From the NCBI GenBank assembly GCA_963776245.1, contig CAVZLN010000006.1:5215-69214 (forward strand): a DNA stretch of 64,000 bases. Reading direction: 5' to 3'. Made by a program: the position numbers and the translations under genes. Numbering within the stretch: position 1 is the stretch's first letter; each line of letters opens with the position of its first letter. Shown here piece after piece: positions 11,355-52,573 of the stretch. This DNA comes from Candidatus Eiseniibacteriota bacterium. GTDB taxonomy: Bacteria > Eisenbacteria > RBG-16-71-46. Under the pieces are notes generated by a model that searched no databases, had not been told where the DNA came from, and was given only the letters and a program-made list of their open reading frames with translations.

Positions 11355-11432
11355 ATGCGGAAGAGCCGGTTCACGGATGAGCCGATCGTCGCCATCGTGC
11401 GTGAGCGCGAGCGCGAGGCGTTCGACACCAAC
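11355..11432 (+). mobile_element. remnant of the N-terminus of an IS3-family transposase OrfA
   Basis: MRKSRFTDEPIVAIVRERE resembles the IS3/IS911 OrfA start (MKKSRFTEEQIIAIL). Similarity is lost after about 25 aa, so this is a fragment only. Confidence 0.3.
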
Positions 11433-11483
11433 CTCCGGCGCCAGCCGCGCACCTGGGGATCACTGCTGAGAACCCGGCGCGGT

Positions 11484-29328: not shown

Positions 29329-29329
29329 C

Positions 29330-29668
29330 ATGCCACGCGACGTCGAAGCCGCGAAGTGCAGGAAGTGCGGCACGCTCTCCTACCCGACCCACTTCTACTG
29401 CCGCTCGTGCAAGGGCACGAAGTTCGAGCCGGTGCCGGTCACGGGGGAAGGCAAGCTCCTCACCTGGACCAAGGTGTACGCGCTGCCGCTGGACTACGAG
29501 GATCTCTACATCACCCTCGGCATCGTCGAGCTCGACATGGGGGTGCGCGCCACCGGCCGGCTCGAGATGGCCGAGCCCCGCATCGGCGCGCGGGTGCGCG
29601 CCCGGGTCGGCAAGGTGCGCGAGACGGCCGGGAAGGACATCACGGGGCTGATCTTCAGCGCGGTATGA
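29330..29668 (+). CDS. DUF35 Zn-ribbon/OB-fold protein (thiolase partner subunit)
   Basis: [20 protein letters not shown] (Zn ribbon) followed by an OB-fold-like segment [39 protein letters not shown]. Confidence 0.7.
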
Positions 29669-29774
29669 ACGCATGCGGTCCGCCTCGCCGCGACCGTCGT
29701 CGCGGCGAGGCCGGGCGGCTCTGGAGCGGCGCGCACCACGCCGGCACGGGCGCGCGGCGGCGCGCTCGCGGAGG

Positions 29775-33499: not shown

Positions 33500-33515
33500 G
33501 CAGGGCGAGGAGCAC

Positions 33516-36514: not shown

Positions 36515-36551
36515 CGCGCGACGCTACCCGCGGCCCCTTCCCGGAGGACCC

Positions 36552-37418: not shown

Positions 37419-37432
37419 ACGACCCCACGCCC

Positions 37433-38188
37433 GTGCTGCGGGCGGAGCGCGCCGGCCCGCTGGCGGCCGACGCGCTCCGTGCCGGGGCCGCCGGGCGGGT
37501 GGTGGACGTCTCCTCGCGCGCGGCGTTCGTGCGCCTCGACGACGGTCCGCTGGTCGCGGTGCTCCCCGCCGCGACGCCGCTCCATCCGTGGGCGGTAGTC
37601 GCCGCGGCCGGGGCCCCTCCCGAGGCCGGCGCGGCCGTGCGTCTCTCGGTCGACGGAGCGGCGGTCCCCGGTCTGTGTCTGACCGCACGGCCCGCGACAT
37701 TCCACCCGGGCCTCGTCCGTGCGCTCGCGTCGCTGGTGCGCGCCCCAGCACGCCCGGATGACTTCGACGAGGCGCTGTCCGGCGGGCTCCACCGCTTCCG
37801 CGCGCTCGGCGACGCCCGCGCGCTTGCCGGGCTGGTGGGGCTCGGCCCGGGCCTCACACCTTCGGGGGACGACATCGTGGTGGGCGCGCTCGCGGCGCTC
37901 GACCTCGCGCAGGAGGCACGGCCCGCCGCGGCCGGGCTGCGCGACGCGCTCGCAGCGGCGCTCGACGGGAAGATCGCGTTTCGCACCCCGCGGCTGTCGG
38001 CCCAGCTGCTGTCGGCCGCGCTCGCGGGGTTCTATGCCGAGCCGCTGCTCGCGCTGCTCGAGGCGCTCGCGACTGCCGGATCGCCCGGCGCGCTTGCCGC
38101 GGCGGCGGACGCCCTCACTGCGGTCGGCCATCGAAGCGGGACCGATATGTTGCGCGGGGTCGCGGCGGCGATGGAGTGCGTGGGATGA
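37433..38188 (+). CDS. DUF2877 (YlbF-like) protein; GTG start inferred
   Basis: C-terminal part of ORF 36599-38188 (TPSGDDIVVGALAALD...GHRSGTDMLRGV), in the expected position after FdrA/DUF1116. GTG at 37433 lies immediately after the cyclase stop. Confidence 0.5.
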   Translation: MLRAERAGPLAADALRAGAAGRVVDVSSRAAFVRLDDGPLVAVLPAATPLHPWAVVAAAGAPPEAGAAVRLSVDGAAVPGLCLTARPATFHPGLVRALASLVRAPARPDDFDEALSGGLHRFRALGDARALAGLVGLGPGLTPSGDDIVVGALAALDLAQEARPAAAGLRDALAAALDGKIAFRTPRLSAQLLSAALAGFYAEPLLALLEALATAGSPGALAAAADALTAVGHRSGTDMLRGVAAAMECVG

Positions 38189-38201: not shown

Positions 38202-40049
38202 CTAGCGGATCCACACCACCTTGCCCGACGCGTTCCCCGCGTCGGTGCGCAGGTCCCAGAAGTAGATGCCGCTCGCCAGTGACTCGGGAAAACGCCATCC
38301 CAGCCGGCTCTCGCCCGCGTGCAGCTCGCCCGCGGCGCGATGCACGCGCTCGCCCTCGAGGGACACCACGTCGAGCGAGTACCGCGAAGACCGCGGCAGG
38401 GTGACCGTGAGTTCGGCGCCCTCGGCCCGCACACGGGCGACCGGATTGGGCCACTCCGTGACGTGGAGGCCTGCGGGAGGCGCGCCCGGCCGGCCCACGC
38501 CGAGCTCCTGGGGCACCGGGCTCTCCAGGTGCCGGATGATATTGAGCACGACCTGTCGGACGACCGGGTTGCCCGTGGTGCCGACGTAGTACCAGAGGTC
38601 GTCGCCAAGATGGCGGTAGGGCATCGTGAAGACGGCGCCCTGGCCAGGCTGCTGGTACCCACCCATGACCCCCCAGCACGGAGACACCGGGTGCGAGGTA
38701 CCATACGGGTTGGCCTCGCACGTCGCGGCGATCGCGAACGACCAGGGCGTTCCCCGGGCGTAGGCGTCCGCCATCAGCGTGGGCCTGCCGTCGGCGGTGG
38801 ACGGATCGCCGAACCATGTGAGCTTCGCGCCATCCACCTCGTCGCCCGGCAGGTGGGTGGCGCCGAGCTTCGCGCCCTTCGCCAGACCGGTGTTCGCGAA
38901 CGCCCAGTGCGTCGAGTCGCGCACCGTCCAGTCGGTCGGGGTGCCTTGCCCGTCGCTGTCCAGGGACGCCTGCGTGGCGTCCCCCCAGTCGAGGCCGGTG
39001 AGCGAATACGCCCCGCGGTTGGCCGGCGGGAGTCTCCAGTTGTAGGTGCCGGGGTGCAGCGGATGGGGTCCGGTCGGCCCATAGAGGTACTGCTGCCCGG
39101 GCAGGATGCCGCGCGTGCCGCCATCGGCGTCGCTGATGTTGTCGCCCTTGTAACAGATCAGCTGGCGCATGTCGGTGGAGTACTCGGTCCGCCACCAGCA
39201 GGTGTTGCCGGTGGCGAAGAAGACGTTGCCGCCGCTGGCGATGTACGCCTCGACGGCGTCCCGCTGGGACTCGGACCAGTACTCCGAGTGCCCGGTGAAC
39301 ACCACTTCCTGGTACGCGCTGAGCAGGGCGAGTCCCTGGACGTGGATGTCCTCCATGGTGGCGTAGTCGGCCTCCACGCCGGACAGGGCGAGGAAGCGCA
39401 CCCACGGCAGGTCGAACTGGGCGAACTGGCCACGCCCGTCGTTGGTGTCCGCCGGGCGCTCGAGCGAGGCCATGTTGGTGCGGTCGGCGGACAGCTTGTC
39501 GTAGAGGGAGCGCCCGCCCCAGGCCTGATAGGCGAAGCAGGTCGAGGTGGAGGGAACCACTAGGATGGGGTGGGTCGGCTGCGGGTTGCGGACGAAGAAC
39601 GGCACCTGTTGACGCATGAAGCTGGGCTCACCGTCCTCGGGCCACACCTCGACGTAGTACGCCGCGCTGACCCAATCGGCCGGAACGACGACCCGCAGCG
39701 TCGGCGCCCAGCCGCAGCCGGTCGACGACACCCCGACGTTGACGCCGGCCGCGTCCGTGACCAGTTGATGGCCGGCGGGCGTGTGGGGGTGGTGGGCTCC
39801 GGTGCCGTCGTACACGTAGGTCTCGCTCGCGCCCACCCGCTGGAAGCGGATCCCCACCGTCGGCGACTTCGAGCACACGAAGATCGACAGCGTGTCCCCC
39901 GCCACCACCGAGGGCGGCCAGACATAGGCGTAGATCGACTTGATGGGGGCGCCGGTCCAGGTCGGATCCAGCGGATCGACCATCGCGGCGGTGGCCGGGG
40001 ACGCGGCGGCCAGCGCCAGTCCGAGCGCGCCGTGGAGCCACCACGGCAT
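38202..40049 (-). CDS. secreted protein with FlgD-Ig-like C-terminal sorting domain, function unknown
   Basis: Signal peptide MPWWLHGALGLALAAASPATAA. C-terminus WPNPVARVRAEGAELTVTLPRSSRYSLDVVSLEGERVHRAAGELHAGESRLGWRFPESLASGIYFWDLRTDAGNASGKVVWIR. Confidence 0.55.
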   Translation of the reverse strand: MPWWLHGALGLALAAASPATAAMVDPLDPTWTGAPIKSIYAYVWPPSVVAGDTLSIFVCSKSPTVGIRFQRVGASETYVYDGTGAHHPHTPAGHQLVTDAAGVNVGVSSTGCGWAPTLRVVVPADWVSAAYYVEVWPEDGEPSFMRQQVPFFVRNPQPTHPILVVPSTSTCFAYQAWGGRSLYDKLSADRTNMASLERPADTNDGRGQFAQFDLPWVRFLALSGVEADYATMEDIHVQGLALLSAYQEVVFTGHSEYWSESQRDAVEAYIASGGNVFFATGNTCWWRTEYSTDMRQLICYKGDNISDADGGTRGILPGQQYLYGPTGPHPLHPGTYNWRLPPANRGAYSLTGLDWGDATQASLDSDGQGTPTDWTVRDSTHWAFANTGLAKGAKLGATHLPGDEVDGAKLTWFGDPSTADGRPTLMADAYARGTPWSFAIAATCEANPYGTSHPVSPCWGVMGGYQQPGQGAVFTMPYRHLGDDLWYYVGTTGNPVVRQVVLNIIRHLESPVPQELGVGRPGAPPAGLHVTEWPNPVARVRAEGAELTVTLPRSSRYSLDVVSLEGERVHRAAGELHAGESRLGWRFPESLASGIYFWDLRTDAGNASGKVVWIR

Positions 40050-40330
40050 GAGCACCGATCGCGGTCTCAGATACACACCGGGACACTCCCTGGGGGGGGC
40101 CAGTGGGAACGCGACGGTGCCGGGACGCACGTTCGCCCGGCGGGACGGCTATAAGCGTACGGCGGCCCGGGGGTTTCCGCCAGCGGCGCCATCCGGACCG
40201 GCCGGCGCCACGCGGGGCCGGGCCGGCGGCGGTCCCCCGGCGCGAATCCCCCGTTGACCAACGAACGTTCGTTCGTTAACGTCCGCGGGTCGGGAGCCCC
40301 CCAGCTTCCCTGTCGCCGCGAGGTCCGCGC

Positions 40331-41392
40331 ATGAACGCTCCTGTCGCGTATTTCCTCGACGCGCCCGCCGCACCGCTGGTGCCGCGCGCGCTCGAGCTGG
40401 CCCCGCCCGGGCCCGGCGAGGCCGTCGTCGAGGTCCTCGCCTGCGGCCTGTGCCACACCGACCTCGGGTTCGCCGACGGCTCGGTGCGCCCCAATCACGC
40501 GCTTCCCCTGGTGCTCGGCCACGAGGTCGTGGGCACCGTCACCGCGACCGGGGACGGCGTGACGCTGAAGACCGGCACCCGCGTCATCGTGCCCGCGGTG
40601 CTGCCGTGCGGCACGTGCGCGTTCTGCCGCGCGGGCCGCGGGAACGCCTGCCCCTCGCAGAAGATGCCCGGCAACGACATCCACGGCGGCTTCGCCACCC
40701 ACCTGCTGGTGCCGGCCGCCCCGCTGGTCTCGCTCGACGGTCTGCCCGCGGGCGTGGACGTCCGGATGCTCTCGGTGGTGGCCGACGCGGTCTCGACCGC
40801 GTACCAGGCGGTGCGCCGCGCGGACCTCAAGGCCGGGGATGTCGCGTTCGTCGTCGGCGCGGGCGGCGTGGGCGGATTCGTCACCCAGATCGCGCACGCC
40901 ATGGGCGCACGGGTCGCGGTGTGCGACGTGCAGCCGGCCCGCCTCGCGCAGTTGCTCGCCCACGGCGCCGCGCACACCGCGGACGTCCGTGATCGCACGC
41001 CCCAGGAGGTCCGCAAGGAGCTGCACGCGCTGGCGCGCGGATGGGACGTGCCCTCGCTGCGCTGGCGCGTCTTCGAGTGCAGCGGGAGCCCCGCCGGGCA
41101 GACGCTCGCCTTCGGGCTCCTCTCCCGCGGCGCGACCCTGCTGCAGGTGGGCTACACCATCCAGACGGTGGAGGTGCGCCTCTCCAACCTGATGGCGTTC
41201 GACGCCACCATTCACGGCACCTGGGGCTGTCCGCCGGAGGCGTATGCCGATGTGCTGCGCCTGATCGCCGAGGGCAAGGTGGCGCTCGAGCCGTTCGTCG
41301 AGCACGCGCCGATGTCCTCGATCAACGAACTGCTCGACGCCCTGGCGCATCACCGGCTGGAGCGCCGCATGATCCTCGACCCTCGCCGCTAG
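40331..41392 (+). CDS. had: Zn-dependent medium-chain alcohol dehydrogenase; candidate 6-hydroxycyclohex-1-ene-1-carbonyl-CoA dehydrogenase
   Basis: GLCHTD and GHEVVGTV zinc-ADH signatures, GxGxxG NAD fold (VVGAGGVGGFV). Sits immediately upstream of oah and dch homologues. Confidence 0.65.
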   Translation: MNAPVAYFLDAPAAPLVPRALELAPPGPGEAVVEVLACGLCHTDLGFADGSVRPNHALPLVLGHEVVGTVTATGDGVTLKTGTRVIVPAVLPCGTCAFCRAGRGNACPSQKMPGNDIHGGFATHLLVPAAPLVSLDGLPAGVDVRMLSVVADAVSTAYQAVRRADLKAGDVAFVVGAGGVGGFVTQIAHAMGARVAVCDVQPARLAQLLAHGAAHTADVRDRTPQEVRKELHALARGWDVPSLRWRVFECSGSPAGQTLAFGLLSRGATLLQVGYTIQTVEVRLSNLMAFDATIHGTWGCPPEAYADVLRLIAEGKVALEPFVEHAPMSSINELLDALAHHRLERRMILDPRR

Positions 41393-41402
41393 GGAGCCGC
41401 CG

Positions 41403-42536
41403 ATGCCCGAGACCACGCACCCGCCGGTCGCCATGAAGAGCCACGAGCTCGACCCGGAGTTCCGTTTCCGCTCCATCCGCTACGAGGAGCGCCCGGTGCT
41501 GGGCCGCGACGGCACTCCCGTCGCCGGCCTGCACCAGACCTGGATCTGGCTCGACAACGAGAAGCAGCTCAACTCCTACACCACCGACGCGGTGAAGGAG
41601 ATCATCCTGGCGTTCCGCCGCGCCAGCATGGACCGCCGCAGCGTGGCGGTGGTGTTCACGGCGGTGGGGGCGCGCTCCTTCTGCACCGGCGGCAACACCG
41701 AGGAGTACGCGGTCTATTACGCCGGACGCCCGCTCGAGTACCTGCAGTACATGCGCCTGTTCAACGACATGGTCACCGCCATCCTGCTGTGCGACAAGCC
41801 GGTGATCTGCCGCGTCAACGGCATGCGCATCGGGGGCGGTCAGGAGATCGGCATGGCGTGCGACTTCTCGATCGCCGGCGACCACGCGCGCTTCGGCCAG
41901 GCCGGCCCGGTGCACGGCTCCGCGCCCGATGGCGGGTCGACCGACTTCCTCCACCTCTACGTGGGGTTCGGGAACGCGGCGGAGTCGCTGGTGTTGTGCG
42001 AGCCATGGTCGGCGCACAAGGCGCAGCGCCTCGGACTGGTGAACGAGATCGTGCCGGTGCACCGCGGCGCGGACGGCGCGTGGCTGCCCAACCCGTACGC
42101 GCACACCGACCGCTGGACCGACGCGATGGGCCGCGTCGTGTTCGGCGACTGGAAGACCGGGGACGACGCCCGCGCGGCCAAGGCGGCGGCCGCCGCGTGC
42201 ACCGTCGATCTCGCGCTGCTGGACGAGGCGGTGGACCGGATGGTCACCAAGCTCATGCACACCTTCCCCGACTGCACGCGCAAGACGCTCGAGAGCCTGC
42301 GCAAGAAGAAGCTCGAGCACTGGTACGCCAACAGCGAGACCAACCGCTCGTGGCTGGCGCTCAACATGAACACCGAGGCGGCGGCGGGATTCCCCGCGTT
42401 CCACTTCGGGGACAACAACGAGCGCACGATCGACTTCGCGGAGATGCGGCGCGCGTATGCGGAAGGCGCCCGCTTCGACGCCGACCTGGTGCGCCGCGTG
42501 CTGCCGCCCTCGGCGCGCGCGCGGATGGACACGTGA
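41403..42536 (+). CDS. oah: 6-oxocyclohex-1-ene-1-carbonyl-CoA hydrolase (ring-cleaving crotonase-family enzyme, BamA/Oah type)
   Basis: 377-aa crotonase-fold protein (AVGARSFCTGGNTEEY...RVNGMRIGGGQEIGMACDFSIA) with the long C-terminal extension characteristic of Oah/BamA rather than the about 260-aa standard hydratases. Neighbours had, dch, bcrCBAD. Confidence 0.7.
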   Translation: MPETTHPPVAMKSHELDPEFRFRSIRYEERPVLGRDGTPVAGLHQTWIWLDNEKQLNSYTTDAVKEIILAFRRASMDRRSVAVVFTAVGARSFCTGGNTEEYAVYYAGRPLEYLQYMRLFNDMVTAILLCDKPVICRVNGMRIGGGQEIGMACDFSIAGDHARFGQAGPVHGSAPDGGSTDFLHLYVGFGNAAESLVLCEPWSAHKAQRLGLVNEIVPVHRGADGAWLPNPYAHTDRWTDAMGRVVFGDWKTGDDARAAKAAAAACTVDLALLDEAVDRMVTKLMHTFPDCTRKTLESLRKKKLEHWYANSETNRSWLALNMNTEAAAGFPAFHFGDNNERTIDFAEMRRAYAEGARFDADLVRRVLPPSARARMDT

Positions 42537-42546
42537 GGAGGCGACG

Positions 42547-43347
42547 ATGAACCTCCCCCCTGCCCCCTCCTCCCTGTCGCGCGCGGAGCTGATCGAGCAC
42601 GGCACGGTATTGCGCATCGTGATGGACAAGCCCAAGGGCAACGTGCTCTCGCGCGCGATGATGTCCGAGCTCGCGGCCACCCTCGCGGCGCACCGCGACC
42701 TGCCCCACCTGCGGCTGGTGATCCTGCGCGGTGCGGGCGGCCACTTCTCCTTCGGTGCCGCGGTCGAGGAGCACGTGCCCGAACTGGCGGCCGCGATGCT
42801 CGCGGAGTTCCACGCCTTCATCCGCGCGCTCGCGGCCTATCCGGTGCCGGTGGCGGCGCTGGTCGAGGGACGCTGCCTGGGCGGGGCGTTCGAGACCGTG
42901 CTCGCCTGCCATCTGGTGTTCGCCGCGTCGAACGCGCGCTTCGGCTGCCCCGAGATCAAGCTCGGCGTGTTCCCTCCGGTGCTCGCGGCGGCGGGCGCGC
43001 TGCGGCTCGGCGGCGCGCTCGCCGAGCGGCTGCTGGTCACCGGCGACGAGCTCGACGCCGCGGCCGCGGCGCGTGCCGGGCTGGTCGCGCGCGTGCTCGA
43101 GGACGGCACCGACCCCGAGGCCGCGGTGCTCGAGTGGTACCGCGAGCGACTCGCGCCCCTGTCGGCGTTCTCGCTGCGCGCCGCGACCCGCGCCGCGCGG
43201 GAGGGCTCGGGCCTGCTCGCCGCCCTCGGGGCGCCGCTCGACGCCGCGGAGCGGCTCTACCTCGAGCGGCTGGTGCCGAGCTACGACGGCAACGAGGGCG
43301 TCGCCGCGTTCCTGGCGCGTCGCGCGCCGGTCTGGAAGGACGCGTGA
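42547..43347 (+). CDS. dch: enoyl-CoA hydratase; candidate cyclohexa-1,5-diene-1-carbonyl-CoA hydratase
   Basis: 266-aa crotonase (LRGAGGHFSFGAAVEE...EGRCLGGAFETVLACHLVFAASNARFGCPEIKLGVFP). Confidence 0.6.
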   Translation: MNLPPAPSSLSRAELIEHGTVLRIVMDKPKGNVLSRAMMSELAATLAAHRDLPHLRLVILRGAGGHFSFGAAVEEHVPELAAAMLAEFHAFIRALAAYPVPVAALVEGRCLGGAFETVLACHLVFAASNARFGCPEIKLGVFPPVLAAAGALRLGGALAERLLVTGDELDAAAAARAGLVARVLEDGTDPEAAVLEWYRERLAPLSAFSLRAATRAAREGSGLLAALGAPLDAAERLYLERLVPSYDGNEGVAAFLARRAPVWKDA

Positions 43348-44051
43348 ACGATCCCCCCCGGCGCATCCCGCCCTCGCCGCGCGTGGCGCGCAAGGAGGCC
43401 GGGCGCGTGGACATCCTGCAGGCCGCGGCCGGCCTGCTGGCGACCCATGGGTATCACGGCATGTCGATGCGCGACCTCGCGGCCGCCGCCGGCATGAGCC
43501 TCGCCAATCTCTACAACTACTTCGGCTCGAAGGAGGACCTGCTGTTCGCGCTCCAGACGCGCTCCTTCGAGACCCTGATCGCCATCGCCGCGGAGGTCAC
43601 GGCGGGCGCCGGGAACGCCGAGGCGCAGCTGCACGCGTTCATCCTCAGCCACGTGCGCTACGTGTCGAGCCATCGCGACGTCATGCGCGTGCTGGTCGAG
43701 GAGGCGGGCGGGCTGCCACCCGCACAACGCCGCGCCGTGCGCGCGCTCAAGGAGCGCTATTTCCGCCTCGGGCTCGCCACCGTGCGCGCGGCCCAGCCGC
43801 GCGGACGCCCGGCCGGCCGCCGGTCACTCGAACGCATCACCTACAGCATCTTCGGCATGCTCAACTGGGTGTACGCGTGGTACGAGCCGGGGCGTCACGG
43901 CTCGCCCCACGAGGTCGCGCGCACCATCCATCGTCTCGCGATGACCGGGATGGCCGGTCGCGCGTCCGGCCGCGCTTCGCTCACCGCCACCGAGCGTCAC
44001 GTCGAGCGGGTGGCCGTCCGCTCCCCGATCCATCTGCACCCTCCCGACTGA
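43344..44051 (+). CDS. TetR-family transcriptional regulator
   Basis: N-terminal HTH RVDILQAAAGLLATHGYHGMSMRDLAAAAGMSLANLYNYFGSKEDLL. GTG start overlaps the dch stop (GTGA). Confidence 0.75.
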   Translation: MNDPPRRIPPSPRVARKEAGRVDILQAAAGLLATHGYHGMSMRDLAAAAGMSLANLYNYFGSKEDLLFALQTRSFETLIAIAAEVTAGAGNAEAQLHAFILSHVRYVSSHRDVMRVLVEEAGGLPPAQRRAVRALKERYFRLGLATVRAAQPRGRPAGRRSLERITYSIFGMLNWVYAWYEPGRHGSPHEVARTIHRLAMTGMAGRASGRASLTATERHVERVAVRSPIHLHPPD

Positions 44052-44062
44052 GGACGATCCCC

Positions 44063-45268
44063 ATGGATCCCGCCCGTACCGCCCCGACCCCGCCGGACCC
44101 CTGCGCGCCGTTCCTCGAGCGCGCGCTGGAGCAGGTCGAGGACCACACCTTCGCCGCCGTGCGCGCGTGGAAGGCCGCCCATCCGGGAGCGCTCGCGATC
44201 GGGCACATGCCGATCTACGCGCCGCGCCCGCTGCTCGAGGCGATGGGATGCCTGCCGGTCGCCGTGTTCGGCGCCGGCGCGCAGATCGACATCATCCGCG
44301 GCGATTCGTACTTCCAGTCCTACATGTGCCACATCCCGCGCAGCACGCTCGAGCTCGCGCTCAACGGCCACCTCGACGCGCTCGACGGGATGCTGTTCCC
44401 GTCCATCTGCGACGTCATCCGCAATCTCGGCGGGATGTGGCACATGCTCTTCCCGGAGCGCTACGCGTTCTACCTCGATCTGCCGCAGAACTTCGACGCG
44501 GCGCTCGGCGGCCGCTTCTACGTCGAGCAGATGCGCACCGTGGCGCGCGACCTCGAGGCCCGCGGCGCGCGGCCGCTCACCGACGCCGCGCTCCGCGCGG
44601 CGCTCGCCGACGAGGACGCCCGGCGCGAGCGGCTGGCCACCCTCGACGCGCTGCGCCGTCGCGAGCCGTGGCGCGTGCGCTGTTCGGAGGCCTACCTGAT
44701 CGTGCGCGCCGGCACCCAGATGCTGGCGCGGGAGCACACCGCCCTGCTCGACGCGTTCCTCGCCGCCGCCGCCGATCGCCCGGCCAGGGTCTTCGACAAC
44801 GCGCGCGTCGTGCTGGTGGGATCGTTCTGCGAGCAGCCGCCGATCGAGCTGATCCGCACGCTCGAACGCGCCGGCTGCGACATCCTCGACGACGACCTGC
44901 AGCTCGGCCTGCGGATGATCGAGCAGCCGGTCGCGGCGGGCGCGGACGAGCCGCCGCTCGACGCGCTCGCCCGGGGCTACCTGGAGCACGGCGCGGCGAC
45001 CGCTTCGCGGTACATCGCCGAGGGCGTCAAGGGCGCGGCGCTGATCGAGAAAGTGCGGGCCTGCGGCGCCGACGGCGTCATCTTCGCCGCCGCGTCGTTC
45101 TGCGACCCGGCGCTGCTCGACCAACCGATGCTGGAGGTCGCGCTGGACGCCGCCGGGATCCCGCACACCAGCGTGAAGTTCGCCGAGAACACCGGCCAGT
45201 TCCAGACCACGCGCGAGCAGGCCGGCGCGTTCTCCGACGCCGTCAAGCTCTGGGAGGGCCAGTCATGA
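44063..45268 (+). CDS. bcrC: benzoyl-CoA reductase subunit C (HgdB-like)
   Basis: About 400 aa, 2-hydroxyglutaryl-CoA dehydratase component-D-like. First of four co-directional genes in bcrCBAD order. Confidence 0.75.
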   Translation: MDPARTAPTPPDPCAPFLERALEQVEDHTFAAVRAWKAAHPGALAIGHMPIYAPRPLLEAMGCLPVAVFGAGAQIDIIRGDSYFQSYMCHIPRSTLELALNGHLDALDGMLFPSICDVIRNLGGMWHMLFPERYAFYLDLPQNFDAALGGRFYVEQMRTVARDLEARGARPLTDAALRAALADEDARRERLATLDALRRREPWRVRCSEAYLIVRAGTQMLAREHTALLDAFLAAAADRPARVFDNARVVLVGSFCEQPPIELIRTLERAGCDILDDDLQLGLRMIEQPVAAGADEPPLDALARGYLEHGAATASRYIAEGVKGAALIEKVRACGADGVIFAAASFCDPALLDQPMLEVALDAAGIPHTSVKFAENTGQFQTTREQAGAFSDAVKLWEGQS

Positions 45269-46572
45269 GCACCCCCACGCCGCCCGCCACGCCCGCCGCT
45301 CCCGAGAGCGCCAAGGACCTGAGCCAGGTCCGGCAGAAGCGCATGATCGCGGATCTGTTCGACCGTCTCGCGCGCTCGAAGGCGGACGGCAAGCCGGTGG
45401 TCTACACGTTCGTGCCCGGGAACCTCACCGAGATGATCGGCGCGCTCGACATGCTGCCGGTGCTGCCCGAGATCAACGCCCTGCAATCCGGGATGCGCGG
45501 ACGCTCGGGCGGCTACATCGCCGAGGCCGAGAAGGCCGGGCACTCCGAGGACGTCTGCACGTACGTCAAGTGCGACATCGGGATGCTGCGCAGCGGCAAC
45601 ATCGGCCCCACCGGCACCAAGCTCCCGGAGCCCGACCTGCTGCTGCTCTCCTATACCGGCTGCTTCACGTTCATGAAGTGGTTCGAGCTGCTGCGCGAGC
45701 AGTACAAGTGCCCGGTCGTGATGCTCCACGTGCCGTACCAGCCGGACGGGATCATCACGCCGGACATGCGCCGCTACGTGGTGGAGCAGCTGCGCGACAA
45801 GGTGGTGCCCGCGCTCGAGGCGGTCGCCGGCCGGAAGCTCGACCTCGACGAGCTGGCGCGCCGGCTGGCGCTATCCGCCCAGGCCGAAGACGATCTGGTG
45901 GCGGTGTGGGAGTCGGCGCGCCACCGCCCCTCGCCCATCGACGGCTACTTCGGCGGCGTGTACTACATCGGACCGATCTTCAGCGCCTTCCGGGGCACCG
46001 AGGACGCGGTCGCCTACTACCGCGAGCTGCGCGCAGAGGTCGAGGCGCGCATCGCCAGCGGCGAGGGCCCGACCACGCCCGACGGTCCGCTCGGCGAGGA
46101 GCGCTACCGCCTGGTCATCGAGGGCCCGCCGAACTGGACCAGCTTCAACGATTTCTGGCGCATGTTCTCGCGTGAGGGCGCGGTGGTGGTGGCGAGCACG
46201 TACACGCGCGTGGGCGGGCTCTACGACACCGGATTCCGCCACGACCCCCGGCATCCGCTCGAGAGCCTCGCCGACTACTGCCTCGGCTGCTACACCAACC
46301 TCGGGTTGTCGTCGCGCGTCGCGCTGCTCGAGCGCTACATCCGCGACTACCACGCCGACGGCTTCATCATCAACAGCGTGAAGTCGTGCAATTCGTTCAG
46401 CGCCGGCCAGCTGCTCATGCTGCGCGAGCTCGAGAAGCGCACCGGCGTGCCGGGCGGGTTCATCGAGTCCGACCTCGTGGATCCGCGCTACTTCGGCAAG
46501 GCCAACATCGAGAACCGGATCCAATCCTACCTGCAGATGATCGAGGCGCGCCGCCACGGAGGATTCGCATGA
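45265..46572 (+). CDS. bcrB: benzoyl-CoA reductase subunit B (HgdA-like)
   Basis: About 435 aa HgdA/BcrB-family protein (CTYVKCDIGML, SYTGCFTFMKWFELL). Start overlaps the bcrC stop. Confidence 0.75.
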   Translation: MSTPTPPATPAAPESAKDLSQVRQKRMIADLFDRLARSKADGKPVVYTFVPGNLTEMIGALDMLPVLPEINALQSGMRGRSGGYIAEAEKAGHSEDVCTYVKCDIGMLRSGNIGPTGTKLPEPDLLLLSYTGCFTFMKWFELLREQYKCPVVMLHVPYQPDGIITPDMRRYVVEQLRDKVVPALEAVAGRKLDLDELARRLALSAQAEDDLVAVWESARHRPSPIDGYFGGVYYIGPIFSAFRGTEDAVAYYRELRAEVEARIASGEGPTTPDGPLGEERYRLVIEGPPNWTSFNDFWRMFSREGAVVVASTYTRVGGLYDTGFRHDPRHPLESLADYCLGCYTNLGLSSRVALLERYIRDYHADGFIINSVKSCNSFSAGQLLMLRELEKRTGVPGGFIESDLVDPRYFGKANIENRIQSYLQMIEARRHGGFA

Positions 46573-48011
46573 AGTGCGTCGTCGGCATCGACCTCGGCTC
46601 GACCACCACCAAGGCCGTCCTCATGGACGAGCACGGCGCCATCCTCGGCCAGGGCATCACCAACAGCCGGAGCAACTACGAGGTGGCCTGCGCGGTGGCC
46701 CACGAGGAAGCGCTGCTCTCCGCGCGCCGCAGCCTGGTGGAGCGCGCCATCGCGGCCCTCGAAGGCCCGGGCGCGGACGAGTCGCGCACGCTCGGCCCGC
46801 GGCTGTTCGACGCGCTGCGGCTCGAGATGTACCTCGAGGAACTGGGGGAGCTCGCGGAAGCGGTGCTCCACCACCTCGCGCATCCGGGGGTGCGCGGGGC
46901 TCGCGAGACCCTCGAGCCCGCCGCGCGCGAGGTGCTGGGCGACATGGAGCGCACCGCGCCGGAGATGTTCCTGGGCGCGGCCCCGCGCAAGAGCGACTTC
47001 TTCCGCGACCTCGCCGGAGCCGCGTTCATGGCCGGCGCCGAGCGCATCTGCGCGAGCGGAGCGGTGCCGTTCGACCGGCTGGTGGGATTGTTCGACCGCG
47101 CGATCCTCGACGTCGAGGTCCGCTTCCGCCGCCCGCAGTTCTCCGCGCTGGTGCGGCGCGCTCTCGAGCGCATCGCCCCCGCGCGCGAGGCCGGGCATGT
47201 CGCGGCGCGTCCGCGCATCGAGGAGGTGCTGCGCGACGCCGCCGACCTGCCGCTCGACGAGGTGGCGTTCGTGGGGACCGGCTACGGGCGCCAGACCCTG
47301 CCGTTCCCCAAGGAGGCGGTGCGCAGCGAGATCCTCTGCCATGGCCGTGGCGCCCACGACTCGTTCGCCGACACGCGCACCGTGCTCGACATCGGCGGGC
47401 AGGACACCAAGGCCATCCAGGTGAACGAGATCGGCGTCGTGACGTCGTTCCAGATGAACGACCGCTGCGCCGCCGGCTGCGGGCGCTACCTGGGCTACAT
47501 CGCCGACGAGCTGAATCTCGGCCTCCACGAACTCGGCCCGCTCGCGCTCCAGGCGCGCAAGCTGGTGCGCGTGAACTCCACGTGCACGGTGTTCGCGGGC
47601 GCCGAGCTGCGCGACCGGCTGGCGCTGGGACAGAACCGCGCGGACATCCTGGCGGGGCTCCATCGGGCGATGATGCTGCGCGCGATGTCCCTGCTGGCGC
47701 GCTCCGGCGGGATCGACAACGCCTTCACGTTCACCGGTGGGGTGTGCAAGAACCCGATGGCGACGCGCATCCTGGCGGAGCTGGTGCACGAGCACTATGG
47801 CGCCGGCATCACGCTCCACACCCACGCCGATTCGATCTACATGGGCGCGCGCGGCGCCGCGCTGTTCGCGCTCGACGACCTGCGCGCCGGGCGCCCGGGG
47901 ATCCTGCCCAACTTCGGCCGCGCCGCCGATCCGCCGGCCGAGGAGCCCCCCTGCGGGGGCGGCGAGCCCGCGACGGTCCAGTTCGGCCATGACGCGAAAG
48001 CACAGGGGTAA
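46569..48011 (+). CDS. bcrA: benzoyl-CoA reductase subunit A (ATPase, BadF/BadG/BcrA/BcrD family)
   Basis: MKCVVGIDLGSTTTKAVLMDE (acetate/sugar-kinase-fold ATPase N-terminus) and DRCAAGCGRYL cluster-ligating region. ATGA overlap with bcrB. Confidence 0.8.
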   Translation: MKCVVGIDLGSTTTKAVLMDEHGAILGQGITNSRSNYEVACAVAHEEALLSARRSLVERAIAALEGPGADESRTLGPRLFDALRLEMYLEELGELAEAVLHHLAHPGVRGARETLEPAAREVLGDMERTAPEMFLGAAPRKSDFFRDLAGAAFMAGAERICASGAVPFDRLVGLFDRAILDVEVRFRRPQFSALVRRALERIAPAREAGHVAARPRIEEVLRDAADLPLDEVAFVGTGYGRQTLPFPKEAVRSEILCHGRGAHDSFADTRTVLDIGGQDTKAIQVNEIGVVTSFQMNDRCAAGCGRYLGYIADELNLGLHELGPLALQARKLVRVNSTCTVFAGAELRDRLALGQNRADILAGLHRAMMLRAMSLLARSGGIDNAFTFTGGVCKNPMATRILAELVHEHYGAGITLHTHADSIYMGARGAALFALDDLRAGRPGILPNFGRAADPPAEEPPCGGGEPATVQFGHDAKAQG

Positions 48012-48015
48012 CCCG

Positions 48016-48942
48016 ATGCCCATCCAGCATCTACAGCCGCTCCTCACGGCCGGTGTCGACGTCGGTTCGAGCGCCATCAAGATCGCGCTGATGCAGAGCG
48101 GCGGGGACGGGCCGCCCGCCATGCTCGCCACCGCGACCGAGCGCATCCGCCGGCGCAACGTGTACGAGGTCACCCAGCGCGCCTTCACCGCCACCTGCGA
48201 GGCCGCCGGGGTCGCGCCCGGCGCGTTCGACTACATCGCCTCGACCGGCGACGGCGACGCGGTCCCGTTCCGCACCGGACACTTCTACAGCATGACCACC
48301 CACGCGGCCGGCGCCCTGCACCTGGTGCCGCGCGCGCGCGCCGCGCTCGACGTCGGCGCGCTGCACGCGCGCGCCATCCGCATGGACGACCGCGGCAAGG
48401 TGCTCGCCCACCGCATGACCAGCCAGTGCGCGAGTGGCAGCGGCCAGTTCCTGGAGAACATCGCCCGCTACCTGGGTGTGGCGCTCGCGGACGTCGGCAC
48501 GCTCTCGCTCGCGGCCCGCCGCAGCGAACCGGTGTCGAGCATCTGCGCGGTGCTCGCCGAGACCGACGTCATCAACATGGTGAGCCGCGGCATCTCCACG
48601 GCCGAGATCCTGCGCGGCATCCACCACAGCATCGCCGGCCGGCTGGTGCGGCTGGTGCGCTCGGTCGGCGCCACCGACGTGGTGCTCGTGACCGGCGGGC
48701 TGGCGCAGGACGGGGGGCTGCTCGAACGGCTGGAGACCCTCATCAACGAGGGCGACGAGGCCACCCGGGCCGCGCCGCTGCGCGTCGTGACGCACCCCGA
48801 GGCGATCCTCGCGGGCGCCGTCGGCGCGGCCCTGCTGGGCGCCTACCGGCACCGCCAGCTGGCGCAGAGCGGCCGGCTGGCCGCCGCGGGCACGGCGGTC
48901 GGCGTCACAGCGGGGGATCGTACGGAAATACGTCCGCGGTGA
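48016..48942 (+). CDS. bcrD: benzoyl-CoA reductase subunit D (ATPase)
   Basis: LTAGVDVGSSAIKIALMQ...TSQCASGSGQFLENIARYLG...VVLVTGGLAQDGGL (BcrD/BadG/HgdC-type activase fold). Confidence 0.8.
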   Translation: MPIQHLQPLLTAGVDVGSSAIKIALMQSGGDGPPAMLATATERIRRRNVYEVTQRAFTATCEAAGVAPGAFDYIASTGDGDAVPFRTGHFYSMTTHAAGALHLVPRARAALDVGALHARAIRMDDRGKVLAHRMTSQCASGSGQFLENIARYLGVALADVGTLSLAARRSEPVSSICAVLAETDVINMVSRGISTAEILRGIHHSIAGRLVRLVRSVGATDVVLVTGGLAQDGGLLERLETLINEGDEATRAAPLRVVTHPEAILAGAVGAALLGAYRHRQLAQSGRLAAAGTAVGVTAGDRTEIRPR

Positions 48943-49816
48943 CCTCGAGCGGCACGAACGCATCGCGCAGCGGGCCCTCGAGGGCCGCGGCGACGGACTC
49001 CGCGGTCCATCCCCCGGCCTGGTGGAGCTTGACCGTGGGACGGGGCAGCGAGAACAGCACCAGCTCGGCGCCCCGCACCGCGAACACCTGCCCGCTCACG
49101 CCGCGCGCGGCGTCCGAGACCAGCACCACCGCGAGCGGGGCCACCTGGTCGGCGCGGAGGCGCTGGAGCCCCTCGACGCGCGCTCGCTCGGCGTCGGAGC
49201 TGGCGCCGCCCAGCGTGCCGGTGATGCGCGTCCACGCGAACGGGGCGATGGCGTTGGCGCGGACCCCGAAGCGCGCCAGGTCGAGCGCGATCGAGCGCGT
49301 GAGCCCGACGATGCCGAGCTTGGCGGCGGCATAGTTGGCCTGGCCGAGATTGCCGATGAGCCCCGACGTGGAGGTCATGTTGAGCACCGCCCCCGCGCCC
49401 TGCGCGCGGAAGCGCTCCGCCGCGGCGCGCGACACGTTGAAGGTGCCCTTGAGGTGCACCGCGATGACCGCGTCCCAGTCGGCCTCGGTCATCTTGTGGA
49501 AGATGACGTCCCGCAGGATGCCGGCGTTGTTCACCACGAAGTCGACGCGGCCGAACTCCCGCACGCAACGCTCGACCATGGCGTGGGAGTCGTCCCACGA
49601 CGCCACCGAGCCGTGGTCCGCGACCGCGCGGCCGCCCGCGGTCCCGATGGCGGCCACCACCTCGTCCGCGGGACGCTCGGTCGAGGGCGCTCCATCCACC
49701 GCCACCCCCGCGTCGTTCACCACCACCCCGGCGCCCGCCGCCGCCAGCGCCCGCGCGATCTCGCGCCCGATGCCGCGACCCGCGCCGGTGACCACCCCGG
49801 CCTTGCCCTGGAGCAT
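48905..49816 (-). CDS. short-chain dehydrogenase/reductase (SDR)
   Basis: GKAGVVTGAGRGIGREIA (TGxxxGxG) and NNAG...YAAAK active-site pattern. 303 aa. The upstream 500 codons of ORF 48905-51346 are antisense to the next gene and not coding. Confidence 0.8.
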   Translation of the reverse strand: MLQGKAGVVTGAGRGIGREIARALAAAGAGVVVNDAGVAVDGAPSTERPADEVVAAIGTAGGRAVADHGSVASWDDSHAMVERCVREFGRVDFVVNNAGILRDVIFHKMTEADWDAVIAVHLKGTFNVSRAAAERFRAQGAGAVLNMTSTSGLIGNLGQANYAAAKLGIVGLTRSIALDLARFGVRANAIAPFAWTRITGTLGGASSDAERARVEGLQRLRADQVAPLAVVLVSDAARGVSGQVFAVRGAELVLFSLPRPTVKLHQAGGWTAESVAAALEGPLRDAFVPLEVTADVFPYDPPL

Positions 49817-49945: not shown

Positions 49946-51250
49946 ATGCAGCCGAACCCGCCTGTCACGTCCCTGATCTACGACTGGAACACCGCCGGCA
50001 ACGGCTATCCGCACCGCCCGCATCCGGTGGAGTTCGACGATGAGACGCTCCGCGACGGTCTCCAGTCGCCCTCGGTGCGGGACCCCGACATCGACACCAA
50101 GATCCGGCTGCTCCACCTCATGGACCAGCTCGGCATCCACACCGCCGACCTCGGCCTGCCGGGTGCCGGCCCGCGCGCGTGCGCGGACATCCTGCTGCTG
50201 TGCCGGGAGATCGTGCGCGCGCGCCTGCGCATCACTCCCAACTGCGCGGTGCGGACGGTGCGCGCCGACATCGAACCGCTGATCGAGATCTCGCAGAAGG
50301 TGGGCATCGCGATCGAGACGTGCGCCTTCATCGGCTCGTCCCCGATCCGCCAGTACGCCGAGGACTGGTCGCTCGACACCATGCTGCGGCTGACCGACGA
50401 GGCGGTGTCGTTCGCGGTGCAGAACGGGCTGCCGGTGATGTACGTGACCGAGGACACCACCCGCTCCACCCCCGAGACCATCAAGCGCCTCTTCACCACC
50501 GCGATCGCCGCCGGCGCGAAGCGCGTGTGCGTGGCGGACACGGTGGGCCACATCACGCCCCGCGGCGTGCGCAATCTCATCCCCTACGTGCGCCAGATCA
50601 TCCGCGAGACCGGGGAGGATATCAAGATCGACTGGCATGGCCACAACGACCGCGGCCTCGGTGTCATCAATACCATCACCGCGATGACCTCGGGCGTGGA
50701 CCGCGTGCACGCGACCGCGCTCGGCATCGGCGAACGCGTGGGCAACTGCTCGATGGACCAGCTGCTCATCAACCTGCGGCTGATGGGCTATATCGACAAC
50801 GATCTCTCGGCGCTGGCGGAGTACACCCGTGCCGCCAGCGAGGCCACCCAGGTGCCGATCCCGCCCAACTACCCGGTGTTCGGCCACGACGCCTTCCGCA
50901 CCGCCACCGGCGTGCATGCCGCGGCCATCATCAAGGCGAAGAAGAAGGGCGAGGACTGGCTCGCCGACCTCGTGTACTCGGGCGTGCCGGCCGGGATGGT
51001 GGGCCTGCACCAGCGGATCGAGGTCGGGTTCATGTCGGGCATGTCGAACGTCGTCTACTGGCTGCACGCGCACGGCTTCGAGGCCGAGGAGCGCCTGGTC
51101 GAGGCGATCTTCCGTGCCGCCAAGGAGCACAATCGCGTGCTCACCGACGACGAGCTCACCCAGATCTGCAAGTTCGAGAAGGCCGTCGAGCAGCGCCCGA
51201 TGACGATCGAGACCCTGGGCGCCTGGAAGCACGAGATCGAGGAGCCCTAG
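49946..51250 (+). CDS. HMGL-like family enzyme (2-isopropylmalate/homocitrate/citramalate synthase family)
   Basis: VEFDDETLRDGLQSP (DxxLRDGxQ), TIM-barrel region with HGHNDRGLG. 435 aa. Confidence 0.7.
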   Translation: MQPNPPVTSLIYDWNTAGNGYPHRPHPVEFDDETLRDGLQSPSVRDPDIDTKIRLLHLMDQLGIHTADLGLPGAGPRACADILLLCREIVRARLRITPNCAVRTVRADIEPLIEISQKVGIAIETCAFIGSSPIRQYAEDWSLDTMLRLTDEAVSFAVQNGLPVMYVTEDTTRSTPETIKRLFTTAIAAGAKRVCVADTVGHITPRGVRNLIPYVRQIIRETGEDIKIDWHGHNDRGLGVINTITAMTSGVDRVHATALGIGERVGNCSMDQLLINLRLMGYIDNDLSALAEYTRAASEATQVPIPPNYPVFGHDAFRTATGVHAAAIIKAKKKGEDWLADLVYSGVPAGMVGLHQRIEVGFMSGMSNVVYWLHAHGFEAEERLVEAIFRAAKEHNRVLTDDELTQICKFEKAVEQRPMTIETLGAWKHEIEEP

Positions 51251-51394: not shown

Positions 51395-52573
51395 TCAGAC
51401 GCGCTCGAGCAGCATCGCGAAGCCCATCCCTCCCGACACGCACAGCGTGGCCAGTCCGCGCCGCGCCTGGCGCCGGCGCATCTCGTGGAGCAGCGTCACC
51501 ACGATGCGCGTCCCGGTGGCCCCGATCGGGTGCCCCAGGGCGATGGCCCCGCCGTTCACGTTGAGCCGTTCGCGGTCGAAGCGCAGTTCGCGGTCGCACG
51601 CCAGCACCTGCGAGGCGAACGCCTCATTGAGCTCCACCAGATCGATGTCGCCGAGCGCCACCCCGGTGCGCGCCTCCAGCCGGTGCACCGCCGGCACCGG
51701 ACCGATCCCCATGATCTCGGGCGCCACGCCCGCGGTCGCGAACCCCGCGAGGCGCGCCCACGGCGTGACCCCATGGCGCGCCGCGGCGTCCGCCGACATC
51801 ACCAGCACCGCGGCCGCTCCATCCGTGATGCCCGAGGAATTGCCCGCGTGCACGCTCCCGCCCTTCTTGAACACCGCCGGCAGCTCGGCCAGCGCCGCGG
51901 CCGTCACCCCGTCGCGCGGATGCTCGTCGGCCTCGACCCGCGTGGTCCTGCGGCCGTCCGCCACCTCCACCGCGACGATCTCGTCGGCGAACCGGCCGGC
52001 GCGGCGCGCGCTCTCGCACCGCTGCTGGCTCGTCGCGGCGTAAGCGTCCTGCTCCGCGCGCGGGATCGCGTACTGTTCCGCCAGCGTCTCGGCGGTCTCG
52101 CCCATGATGCGGCCGCTCAGCGGGCAGAGGAACCCGTCCCGGTACATGCCGTCGGTGAGCTCGCCATGGCCGAGCCGGTAGCCCCAGCGCGCCCGTTCGA
52201 GCATGTAGGGCACGCGGCTCATGGACTCGGTGCCGCCCGCCAGCACCACGTCGGTCTCGCCATCGCGGATGATGCGGGCCGCCGACAGGATGGCCTGGAG
52301 ACCAGAGGCGCACGCCATGTTGATCGTGAAGGCCGGTGACTCGTCGGGCACTCCCGCGCGACGCCCGACCTGGCGCGCCGGGTTCGGGCCGCCCCCGGCC
52401 TGACGCGCGTTGCCGAACACCGTGTAGCCCACCGCGGCGGGCGCGAGCCCCGCGCGCTCCAGGCTCGCGCGCGCGGCACAGCCGCCGAGCTCGGCCGCGG
52501 TGAGCGACGCGAGCGCGCCGCCGAAGCGGCCGATCGGGGTCCGGACGGGGGATGCGAGGACGATCTCGGTCAT
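51395..52573 (-). CDS. acetyl-CoA C-acyltransferase (thiolase II)
   Basis: SPVRTPIGRFGG...NMACASGLQAI...GHPIGATGTRIVVTLLHEM...CVSGGMGFAMLLE. Confidence 0.85.
   Translation of the reverse strand: MTEIVLASPVRTPIGRFGGALASLTAAELGGCAARASLERAGLAPAAVGYTVFGNARQAGGGPNPARQVGRRAGVPDESPAFTINMACASGLQAILSAARIIRDGETDVVLAGGTESMSRVPYMLERARWGYRLGHGELTDGMYRDGFLCPLSGRIMGETAETLAEQYAIPRAEQDAYAATSQQRCESARRAGRFADEIVAVEVADGRRTTRVEADEHPRDGVTAAALAELPAVFKKGGSVHAGNSSGITDGAAAVLVMSADAAARHGVTPWARLAGFATAGVAPEIMGIGPVPAVHRLEARTGVALGDIDLVELNEAFASQVLACDRELRFDRERLNVNGGAIALGHPIGATGTRIVVTLLHEMRRRQARRGLATLCVSGGMGFAMLLERV

Follow-up and report, generated by a model that had tools for sequence, protein, structure and literature searches.

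A Thauera-Type Benzoyl-CoA Pathway Operon with a Predicted PaaR-Like Repressor in DNA from a Probable Eisenbacteria Host

Gene Content of the Locus

We analyzed a 64-kb stretch of metagenomic DNA (contig CAVZLN010000006.1, positions 5,215 to 69,214; hereafter, the window) that carries eight collinear genes on its forward strand at 40331–48942, in the order had-oah-dch-tetR-bcrCBAD. We read this locus, with good confidence, as an operon encoding the Thauera-type (Bcr) version of the central anaerobic benzoyl-CoA pathway, with a PaaR-like repressor and a probable Eisenbacteria host. Textbooks associate class I benzoyl-CoA reductases with facultatively anaerobic Proteobacteria, and Eisenbacteria is a phylum with almost no physiological description. 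Reading frames were picked from plots of G+C at third codon positions together with start-codon analysis (the window is ∼71% G+C), and the genes were assigned with Pfam and NCBIfam profiles. An original prediction, made from the DNA letters alone, had placed eight contiguous genes at these coordinates, and its gene lengths agree with ours; each of its assignments is backed by both profile collections.

The cluster opens with had (40331–41392; 353 aa, with ADH_N and ADH_zinc_N domains), followed by oah, encoding the ring-cleaving crotonase 6-oxocyclohex-1-ene-1-carbonyl-CoA hydrolase (41403–42536; 377 aa), and dch, encoding a probable cyclohexa-1,5-diene-1-carbonyl-CoA hydratase (42547–43347; 266 aa). 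The start codon of an embedded TetR-family regulator gene, tetR (43344–44051; 235 aa, with TetR_N and TetR_C_24 domains), overlaps the dch stop codon. The reductase genes follow: bcrC for the gamma subunit, of the HGD-D family (44063–45268; 401 aa), bcrB for the catalytic beta subunit (45265–46572; 435 aa), bcrA for the long ATPase, or electron-activating, subunit (46569–48011; 480 aa), and bcrD for the short ATPase subunit (48016–48942; 308 aa). In Pfam terms, these four are two PF06050 and two PF01869 proteins, contiguous and in the order C-B-A-D. Each of the eight genes is intact and matches its model from end to end, and composition is uniform (72.2% G+C in the cluster and 71.2% in the window). 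Starts and stops had been predicted to overlap throughout; they do so, by 4 nt, at three of the seven junctions (dch/tetR, bcrC/bcrB, and bcrB/bcrA), whereas the other four are gaps of 4–11 nt. Because the eight genes are so tightly packed, we treat them as one operon.

Family Assignment and Fe-S Ligands

For all seven enzymes, the best match was a Thauera/Bcr-type NCBIfam equivalog model. Four passed the curated cut-offs: Had (TIGR03201, 405.3 bits against a cut-off of 338.65), Oah (TIGR03200, 497.8 against 464.45), BcrB (TIGR02260, 684.5 against 486.55), and BcrD (TIGR02261, 322.5 against 312.85). Models for Bzd-type reductases and for Had/Hgd dehydratases scored 4–10 times lower than the Bcr models. 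A Bzd-type class I reductase was rejected at 89.7, 68.9, and 133.6 bits for BzdN, BzdO, and BzdQ (cut-offs of 453.8, 448.6, and 380.2), and a 2-hydroxyisocaproyl-CoA dehydratase was rejected at 145.8 bits for HadB (cut-off of 750) and 145.3 bits for HadC (cut-off of 700). BcrC taken singly reached 90 bits with BzdN and 145 bits with HadC, and the BadI model gave only 115 bits on Oah. Since the competing models lie so far below, we exclude a 2-hydroxyglutaryl-CoA dehydratase and regard the pathway as Thauera-type rather than Rhodopseudomonas-type. Clustering with 2-hydroxyglutaryl-CoA dehydratases, the case that the original prediction had named against itself, clearly fails, with BcrB at 684 bits on the Bcr model and 146 bits on HadB. 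Its proposal of a Thauera-type class I reductase with Dch, Had, Oah, and an embedded TetR regulator is supported by the NCBIfam and Pfam matches and by the ligand alignments described next.

In the structurally characterized BzdNOPQ enzyme from Aromatoleum sp. CIB (PDB ID code 8s02), C95, C128, and C380 of BzdO hold the catalytic [4Fe-4S] cluster, E65 and H131 lie on either side of its water ligand, and the BzdN subunit carries an [8Fe-9S] double cubane (PMC11971306). In a HMMER alignment, BcrB residues C98, C133, and C375 match the three BzdO cysteines. We assessed conservation in 67–82 homologous loci, depending on the subunit. The three BcrB cysteines are invariant (82 of 82 sequences), as are BcrA C300 and C339, the equivalents of the bridging-cluster ligands C127 and C166 of HgdC (75 of 75). 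BcrD C138 and C177, which correspond to the same HgdC pair, are conserved in 67 of 67 sequences, and BcrC C89, C116, C256, C272, and C347 are invariant in 80. Because the predicted Fe-S ligand cysteines are all present and invariant in relatives, the enzyme looks functional.

The window enzyme shares with BzdNOPQ its superfamily, its predicted reaction, and the three cysteine ligands of the catalytic cluster, but the Bzd equivalogs score only 69–134 bits against cut-offs of 380–454, and the position of BzdO His131 is occupied by Phe in BcrB. The closest solved structures to all four subunits, at 196–203 bits, are those of MbdONQP from Aromatoleum/Azoarcus sp. CIB (PDB ID codes 9g87 and 9gai), with MbdN the best match for BcrC. 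MbdO and the window BcrB both have Phe at the His131 position, although overall similarity is low (MbdO aligns at 197 bits).

The likeness to Thauera is broader. The cluster of Thauera aromatica K172, reportedly described by Breese et al. in 1998, is said to run had, oah, dch, bcrCBAD, fdx. Compared by way of the equivalog models and this gene order, the window shares all seven enzyme families, the bcrCBAD order, and the pairing of a long BcrA with a short BcrD, and it has Dch, Had, and Oah and not the BadK/BadH/BadI route of Rhodopseudomonas. It differs in having no fdx after bcrD, in the tetR gene inserted between dch and bcrC, in its non-proteobacterial host, and in the divergence of BcrA, BcrC, and Dch.

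A Predicted Operator Upstream of had

An inverted-repeat search revealed the palindrome AACGAACG-TT-CGTTCGTT at 40260–40277, within a candidate promoter/operator on the forward strand (40254–40282) that lies 54 nt upstream of the had ATG. The palindrome directly follows a −35-like TTGACC (40254–40259), and a weak −10-like TAACGT lies at 40277–40282. When the had-upstream sequences of the window and three related loci (L001, L082, and L083) were aligned, the block TTGAC(C)-AACGAACG-TT-CGTTCGTT-TAnnnT stood out as conserved amid diverged sequence. The palindrome occurs once in the window, where chance would give 0. We then scored related loci for the core CGAACGNNCGTTCG, allowing at most one mismatch and at most 260 bp upstream of the first cluster gene. 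The core was found in 28 of the 31 loci with an embedded tetR, in contrast to 2 of the 44 tetR-less loci (L071 and L076). In the intergenic region between the downstream short-chain dehydrogenase/reductase (SDR) and HMGL-like genes, a search for a second operator gave only a half-site in the window and a site with two mismatches in L001.

Within the palindrome, CGAACGTTCGTTCG at 40262–40275 fits the consensus CNAACGNNCGTTNG at every specified position. This consensus is that of the operator of Thermus thermophilus PaaR, a TetR-family repressor released by phenylacetyl-CoA (PMC9493321). We also scanned metagenome contigs for the promoter-embedded motif TTGACNAACGAACGNNCGTTCG, obtaining at least 120 exact matches (loci L086–L205), and classed 124 metagenome sites by the gene downstream. 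The commonest class was genes for LivJ-type solute-binding proteins (28 of 124), followed by LexA-like genes (16), tetR-like genes (15), PaaA genes (8; TIGR02156, 518 bits), genes for Bug/TctC-like solute-binding proteins (6), and had (4). Of the four long paaA loci carrying the motif, three encode a TetR protein 30–36% identical to that of the window, whose closest solved homologue is 3vpr.

From these comparisons, we read the embedded TetR as a probable PaaR-family paralogue, predicted to be a repressor released by an aryl-CoA. It would resemble PaaR of T. thermophilus HB8 in matching its operator consensus, in responding to an aryl-CoA effector, and in having the same motif before metagenomic paaA genes. 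However, PaaR controls an aerobic-hybrid phenylacetate pathway, whereas the window operon encodes a benzoyl-CoA reductase, and the relatedness of the two regulators was judged via the tetR genes of the paaA loci (30–36%) and not from the Thermus PaaR sequence itself. To our knowledge, a specific regulator of Bcr-type clusters has not been characterized. Precedent for TetR control comes from MbdR, a TetR-family protein that represses a class I reductase cluster until the first aryl-CoA of the pathway releases it (PMC4424350). Its operator, ATAC-N10-GTAT, differs from the CGAACG-N2-CGTTCG of the window, mbdR is a separate transcription unit whereas the window tetR is embedded in the operon, and the 60 best solved homologues of the window TetR do not include MbdR.

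Missing Ferredoxin and CoA Ligase

The original prediction had noted neither a ferredoxin gene nor a benzoate-CoA ligase gene in the window, and our scans agree. None of the six reading frames of the 64 kb contains a CxxCxxCxxxC ferredoxin motif, and the window genes scanned all lack the AMP-binding domain expected of a CoA ligase. The sole match to the AMP-binding signature PROSITE PS00455 (38573–38608) was rejected because it lies in a noncoding frame, within a gene for a DMFA2_C-domain protein. Moreover, 81 related loci all lack a small ferredoxin ORF beside bcrD. The window and these loci thereby differ from the proteobacterial clusters, in which a linked ferredoxin gene is typical, though not strictly defining (fdx in Thauera, badB in Rhodopseudomonas, and bzdM in Azoarcus). 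The consistent lack of a linked ferredoxin in a large clade prompts one to ask what supplies the enzyme with electrons.

Distribution, Synteny, and Phylogeny

A search of 5.8 billion proteins with BcrB returned thousands of strong matches, including a 93% identical BcrB on a 1.45-Mb contig with identical synteny. At least 584 genomes among the GTDB species representatives have a BcrB relative. The best 80 of these, which are 68–87% identical and were the ones we examined, bear the labels Myxococcota, Acidobacteriota (Thermoanaerobaculia, Vicinamibacterales, and Terriglobia), Planctomycetota, Krumholzibacteriia (L034 and L066), Eiseniibacteriota, Gemmatimonadota, and others. Nearly all of 81 loci compared keep the order had-oah-dch-(tetR)-bcrCBAD, and in the closest 30 or so, tetR stands between dch and bcrC as it does in the window. 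A plasmid search for BcrB gave one match only, 26% identical. Three loci that are closest by BcrB (L083, L084, and L085, the last being the same as L002; 88–89%) have no dch between oah and tetR; L083 has a gene for a 253-aa crotonase downstream, after a thiolase gene, so that dch may have been relocated or replaced.

We built a concatenated BcrCBAD tree by neighbor joining with midpoint rooting; it holds metagenomic relatives only, with no reference enzymes, and the labels of metagenome-assembled genomes (MAGs) in it can be wrong. The tree separates a tetR-containing clade, with the window, L001, many Myxococcota, and some Acidobacteriota, from a tetR-less clade that includes a complete Eiseniibacteriota chromosome (L048) and a Gemmatimonadota locus (L065). 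The mixing of phyla in both clades suggests lateral transfer between phyla.

The cassette is already well represented in public data. Such proteins are already named benzoyl-CoA reductase subunit B by JGI and NCBI. A 2019 study reported class I bcr genes together with dch, had, and oah in MAGs of Dehalococcoidia, Anaerolineae, Aminicenantes, TA06, and archaea (PMC6472368), and a 2024 study did so for Krumholzibacteriota, an FCB-group phylum of about 71% G+C, with all four subunits in 12 of 40 MAGs (PMC10936416); a soil-MAG preprint of 2025 also covers class I bcr genes. The gene sets in Krumholzibacteriota and in Chloroflexota, Aminicenantes, TA06, and archaea resemble that of the window in the inferred pathway and in coming from lineages represented only by metagenomes, but neither report has a tetR-containing variant or an operator. 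Our search of the accessible literature found no published description of the complete cluster in Eisenbacteria, which, considering the public data, is a gap in description rather than a discovery. The proposal that the locus widens the known range of ATP-dependent anaerobic aromatic degradation is thus unsupported: both public non-proteobacterial genomes and the literature already show the cassette to be widespread. The cassette is real but ordinary: a further well-preserved example of a complete Thauera-type arrangement common in uncultured soil and groundwater phyla, which mainly confirms the known picture. What our analysis adds, the predicted operator/repressor pair and the clade-wide lack of a linked ferredoxin, is of modest value.

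Host Lineage

The closest named relatives of BcrB are from Candidatus Eisenbacteria, at 86–88% identity. An Eisenbacteria MAG contig (L082; GCA_044451485.1) has ten genes collinear with the window at 60–86% identity, the downstream SDR and HMGL-like genes included. An unlinked 810-aa protein (57319–59751) has matches at 60–64% identity, six of them with taxon-bearing names, and four of these six are Eisenbacteria/Eiseniibacteriota. From these relationships the host is probably Candidatus Eisenbacteria/Eiseniibacteriota, an attribution that we hold a little less firmly than the reading of the operon. In the BcrCBAD tree, the window and the Eiseniibacteriota chromosome L048 stand apart.

The original prediction had proposed a non-proteobacterial FCB-group or Gemmatimonadota-like lineage. 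The non-proteobacterial part stands, but Gemmatimonadota is not supported, given that the named relatives and the synteny with L082 point to Eisenbacteria. The FlgD-Ig C-terminal domains that it had cited did not reappear, there being no significant profile match; the best was a subthreshold hit of the type IX secretion sorting domain Por_Secre_tail on the C-terminal 90 aa of the protein encoded at 38202–40055 (E = 0.046; 14.5 bits against a cut-off of 27).

Alternative Explanations

Several observations weigh against reading the locus as a Thauera-type operon under PaaR-like control in an Eisenbacteria host. Three of the enzymes fall under their equivalog cut-offs: BcrC misses that of TIGR02263 by 3 bits (417.9 against 421.15), BcrA scores 501.8 bits against 578 for TIGR02259 even though residues 1–432 of that 432-position model are aligned, and Dch reaches 210.8 bits against 292.5 for TIGR03189. 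We take these shortfalls to mean that the clade has diverged from the proteobacterial seed sequences. Dch is named a probable Dch because TIGR03189 is still its top match, about 90 bits ahead of the next family (118 bits), and the gene occupies the slot between oah and bcrC that most relatives keep. The catalytic His131 of BzdO is replaced by Phe136 in BcrB, as it is by Phe in MbdO. Ferredoxin, 2-oxoglutarate:ferredoxin oxidoreductase, and CoA ligase genes are all absent from the window, and ferredoxin genes are absent beside bcrD in the 81 loci. On the side of regulation, the co-occurrence of operator and tetR has a Fisher p of ∼5e-15 that is uncorrected for the phylogenetic relatedness of the loci, and a sigma-70 scan gave no promoter upstream of had, which makes the −10 assignment tentative. 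The operator core is also compatible with GAAC-N4-GTTC, and at 16 metagenome sites the gene downstream is LexA-like. As for the host, the taxonomy comes from how related MAG proteins are named, not from marker genes; Rfam and tRNA scans found neither rRNA nor tRNA in the window; and among the six named relatives of the 810-aa protein, the remaining two are labeled Hyphomicrobiales and Dormibacteraeota.

We weighed these points in terms of four other explanations. The shortfalls of BcrA, BcrC, and Dch would suit a Bcr-family reductase specialized for a substituted or different aryl-CoA, such as 4-methyl- or 3-hydroxybenzoyl-CoA, with TetR sensing that thioester; so would the closest solved relative, which is the 3-methylbenzoyl-CoA reductase MbdONQP and not BzdNO, and an operator of the PaaR (phenylacetyl-CoA) type. 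We consider such a specialization unlikely, however: BcrB scores 684 bits on the equivalog for benzoyl-CoA reductase subunit B and only 197 bits to MbdO, Had and Oah both exceed the cut-offs of the equivalogs for the unsubstituted type, and we found no genes in the window for a peripheral pathway that would process substituted aromatics. That the four bcr genes instead encode a 2-hydroxyacyl-CoA dehydratase and its activator from amino-acid fermentation, beside crotonases by coincidence, is effectively refuted. The HGD-D and BcrAD_BadFG Pfam families are common to both enzymes and solved HadBC and HgdC structures are detectable as homologues, but the scores for HadB (146 bits, cut-off of 750) and HadC (145 bits, cut-off of 700) contrast with 418–684 bits for the Bcr models, the two ATPase subunits differ from each other with the long BcrA aligned end to end with TIGR02259, and linkage to Had, Oah, and Dch is kept across the 81 loci.

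The palindrome could also belong to another regulator, either LexA, as an SOS box of the form GAAC-N4-GTTC, or a PaaR paralogue encoded elsewhere. A PaaR-type operator and an SOS-box-like GAAC-N4-GTTC site are indistinguishable at the motif level, and the LexA group (16 of the 124 exact metagenome matches) is the reason that we keep this explanation in play; the site is, besides, present in the tetR-less L071 and L076. Nevertheless, it tracks the embedded tetR (28 of 31 loci vs. 2 of 44), the metagenome sites include positions directly upstream of tetR-like (15) and paaA (8) genes, and an SOS box before a catabolic operon would have no rationale, so that we give another regulator about the same small chance as a substituted substrate. 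Slightly less likely again is that the contig is from Myxococcota, where the cassette would be ordinary vertical synteny, or that the cluster region is a chimeric misassembly. The window does fall in a Myxococcota-dominated clade of the BcrCBAD tree, its BcrB is 80–84% identical to Polyangiaceae/Myxococcales proteins, and at least two frameshift-like defects in the window indicate imperfect assembly. Against this, composition is uniform (72.2% vs. 71.2% G+C), both flanks are collinear with the independent 1.45-Mb contig, the non-B subunits are 56–70% identical to Myxococcota copies vs. 77–86% to those of Eisenbacteria L082, and the named relatives of the unlinked 810-aa protein include no Myxococcota.

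Proposed Pathway and Regulation

Under the preferred reading, a Thauera-type benzoyl-CoA operon with a PaaR-like repressor, BcrA and BcrD would form an ATP-hydrolyzing heterodimer with a shared bridging [4Fe-4S] cluster and pass low-potential electrons via BcrC to the water-ligated [4Fe-4S] cluster of BcrB. There, benzoyl-CoA would be reduced to cyclohexa-1,5-diene-1-carbonyl-CoA. Dch would hydrate the diene, Had would oxidize the 6-hydroxy product, and Oah would open the ring hydrolytically to give 3-hydroxypimelyl-CoA, with the adjacent SDR and thiolase plausibly catalyzing the next β-oxidation steps. The electron-donating ferredoxin and the benzoate-CoA ligase would be encoded elsewhere. 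In this scheme, the genes and their families, the conserved cofactor ligands, the synteny, and the pairing of operator with tetR are observed, whereas catalysis, substrate, effector, repression, and what the SDR and thiolase do are inferred. The embedded TetR most likely binds the palindrome beside the −35-like box upstream of had and would repress the whole operon, its own gene included, until released by an aryl-CoA thioester, most likely benzoyl-CoA. The recurrence of this PaaR-type palindrome with an embedded tetR across phyla makes the regulator a testable candidate for a benzoyl-CoA sensor, of possible use to specialists.

The cassette would belong to a tetR-containing cluster lineage shared mainly with Myxococcota and some Acidobacteriota, a pattern that implies lateral transfer. 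More speculatively, and with somewhat less than even confidence, we suggest that the tetR form is an autonomous cassette of eight genes, carrying its own regulation, that has spread by lateral transfer among Myxococcota, Acidobacteriota, and Eisenbacteria, its PaaR-family repressor re-tuned from phenylacetyl-CoA to benzoyl-CoA and its electrons supplied by a housekeeping ferredoxin rather than a dedicated one. If so, ATP-dependent ring reduction would be a portable trait, widespread in bacteria of soil and groundwater and reaching far past the denitrifying and phototrophic Proteobacteria that served to define it.

Flanking Genes and Other Features of the Window

Downstream of bcrD lies a convergent SDR oxidoreductase gene (48905–49816, reverse strand; 303 aa, adh_short, PRK07791-like), a candidate 3-hydroxypimelyl-CoA dehydrogenase. 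The 3′ ends of the two genes share 38 bp (48905–48942), with no terminator-like hairpin found between the genes; relatives have a BcrD shorter by 13 aa and no such overlap. The position of the SDR gene is kept in L001 (89%), L082 (77%), and L083/L084 (81%). An HMGL-like, or isopropylmalate synthase-like, gene follows (49946–51250, forward strand; 434 aa, PF00682), under all NCBIfam cut-offs, and then a gene for a thiolase of the acetyl-CoA C-acyltransferase type (51395–52573, reverse strand; 392 aa; TIGR01930, 447 bits against 240.55), a candidate 3-oxopimelyl-CoA thiolase that is kept in L001 at 86%. This SDR/HMGL-like/thiolase arrangement is conserved in the closest relatives, and it is plausible that the SDR and thiolase serve the oxidation and thiolysis of 3-hydroxypimelyl-CoA. 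The HMGL-like gene stands beside the cluster in the closest relatives (91% identity in L001 and 81% in L082) and is found again no more than 10 kb from bcr clusters of several phyla (L009, L033, L035, L041, L065, L076, and L082; 41–81%). Its recurrence hints at a functional tie with the pathway, although it matches no known step.

The upstream genes, for an XDH-family molybdenum enzyme, FdrA/AllG/cyclase/AllH proteins, and a DMFA2_C-domain protein, show no tie to the aromatic pathway. The molybdenum hydroxylase consists of an FAD subunit and a 953-aa fusion of 2Fe-2S and molybdenum cofactor domains, and is followed by FdrA, AllG, cyclase-family, and AllH genes (the whole at 29652–38188). As a 4-hydroxybenzoyl-CoA reductase, the enzyme (29652–33499) was rejected at 452 bits against 995 for the alpha subunit and 140 against 405 for the beta subunit; because it is under every NCBIfam equivalog cut-off, that of xanthine dehydrogenase included, we did not assign it to the aromatic pathway. 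The AllG-cyclase-AllH part also lies upstream of the bcr cluster in L001. The divergent neighbor of the operon encodes a secreted DMFA2_C-domain protein, N,N-dimethylformamidase beta-like (38202–40055, reverse strand), in place of which L001 has a Ser/Thr kinase.

Two genes in the window are split by frameshifts that look like long-read indel errors or pseudogenes. One encodes a TolB/surface-antigen-like protein of roughly 996 aa (56760–59751): residues 1–173 of its 996-aa homologue P0133 match at 56760–57269 and residues 154–996 at 57220–59748, in different frames, and the source annotation calls only the 810-aa part. The other, a thiolase-like gene (28200–29668), is split near 28949, with Thiolase_N in one frame and Thiolase_C_1 plus a ChsH2 zinc ribbon and OB fold (DUF35-like) in the next. 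Positions 1–12000 have a weak, irregular coding signal, with 61–67% G+C at 6–11.5 kb compared with 70–75% elsewhere, and most long ORFs there are without a Pfam or NCBIfam match, the exception being an NHL-repeat protein (9317–10297, reverse strand); this segment may be foreign or poorly assembled DNA. Finally, a multihaem cytochrome c gene (23891–24910, reverse strand; Cytochrome_C7, c3, and CIII domains) adjoins genes for TPR and unknown secreted proteins and hints at an anaerobic or metal-respiring lifestyle of the host.

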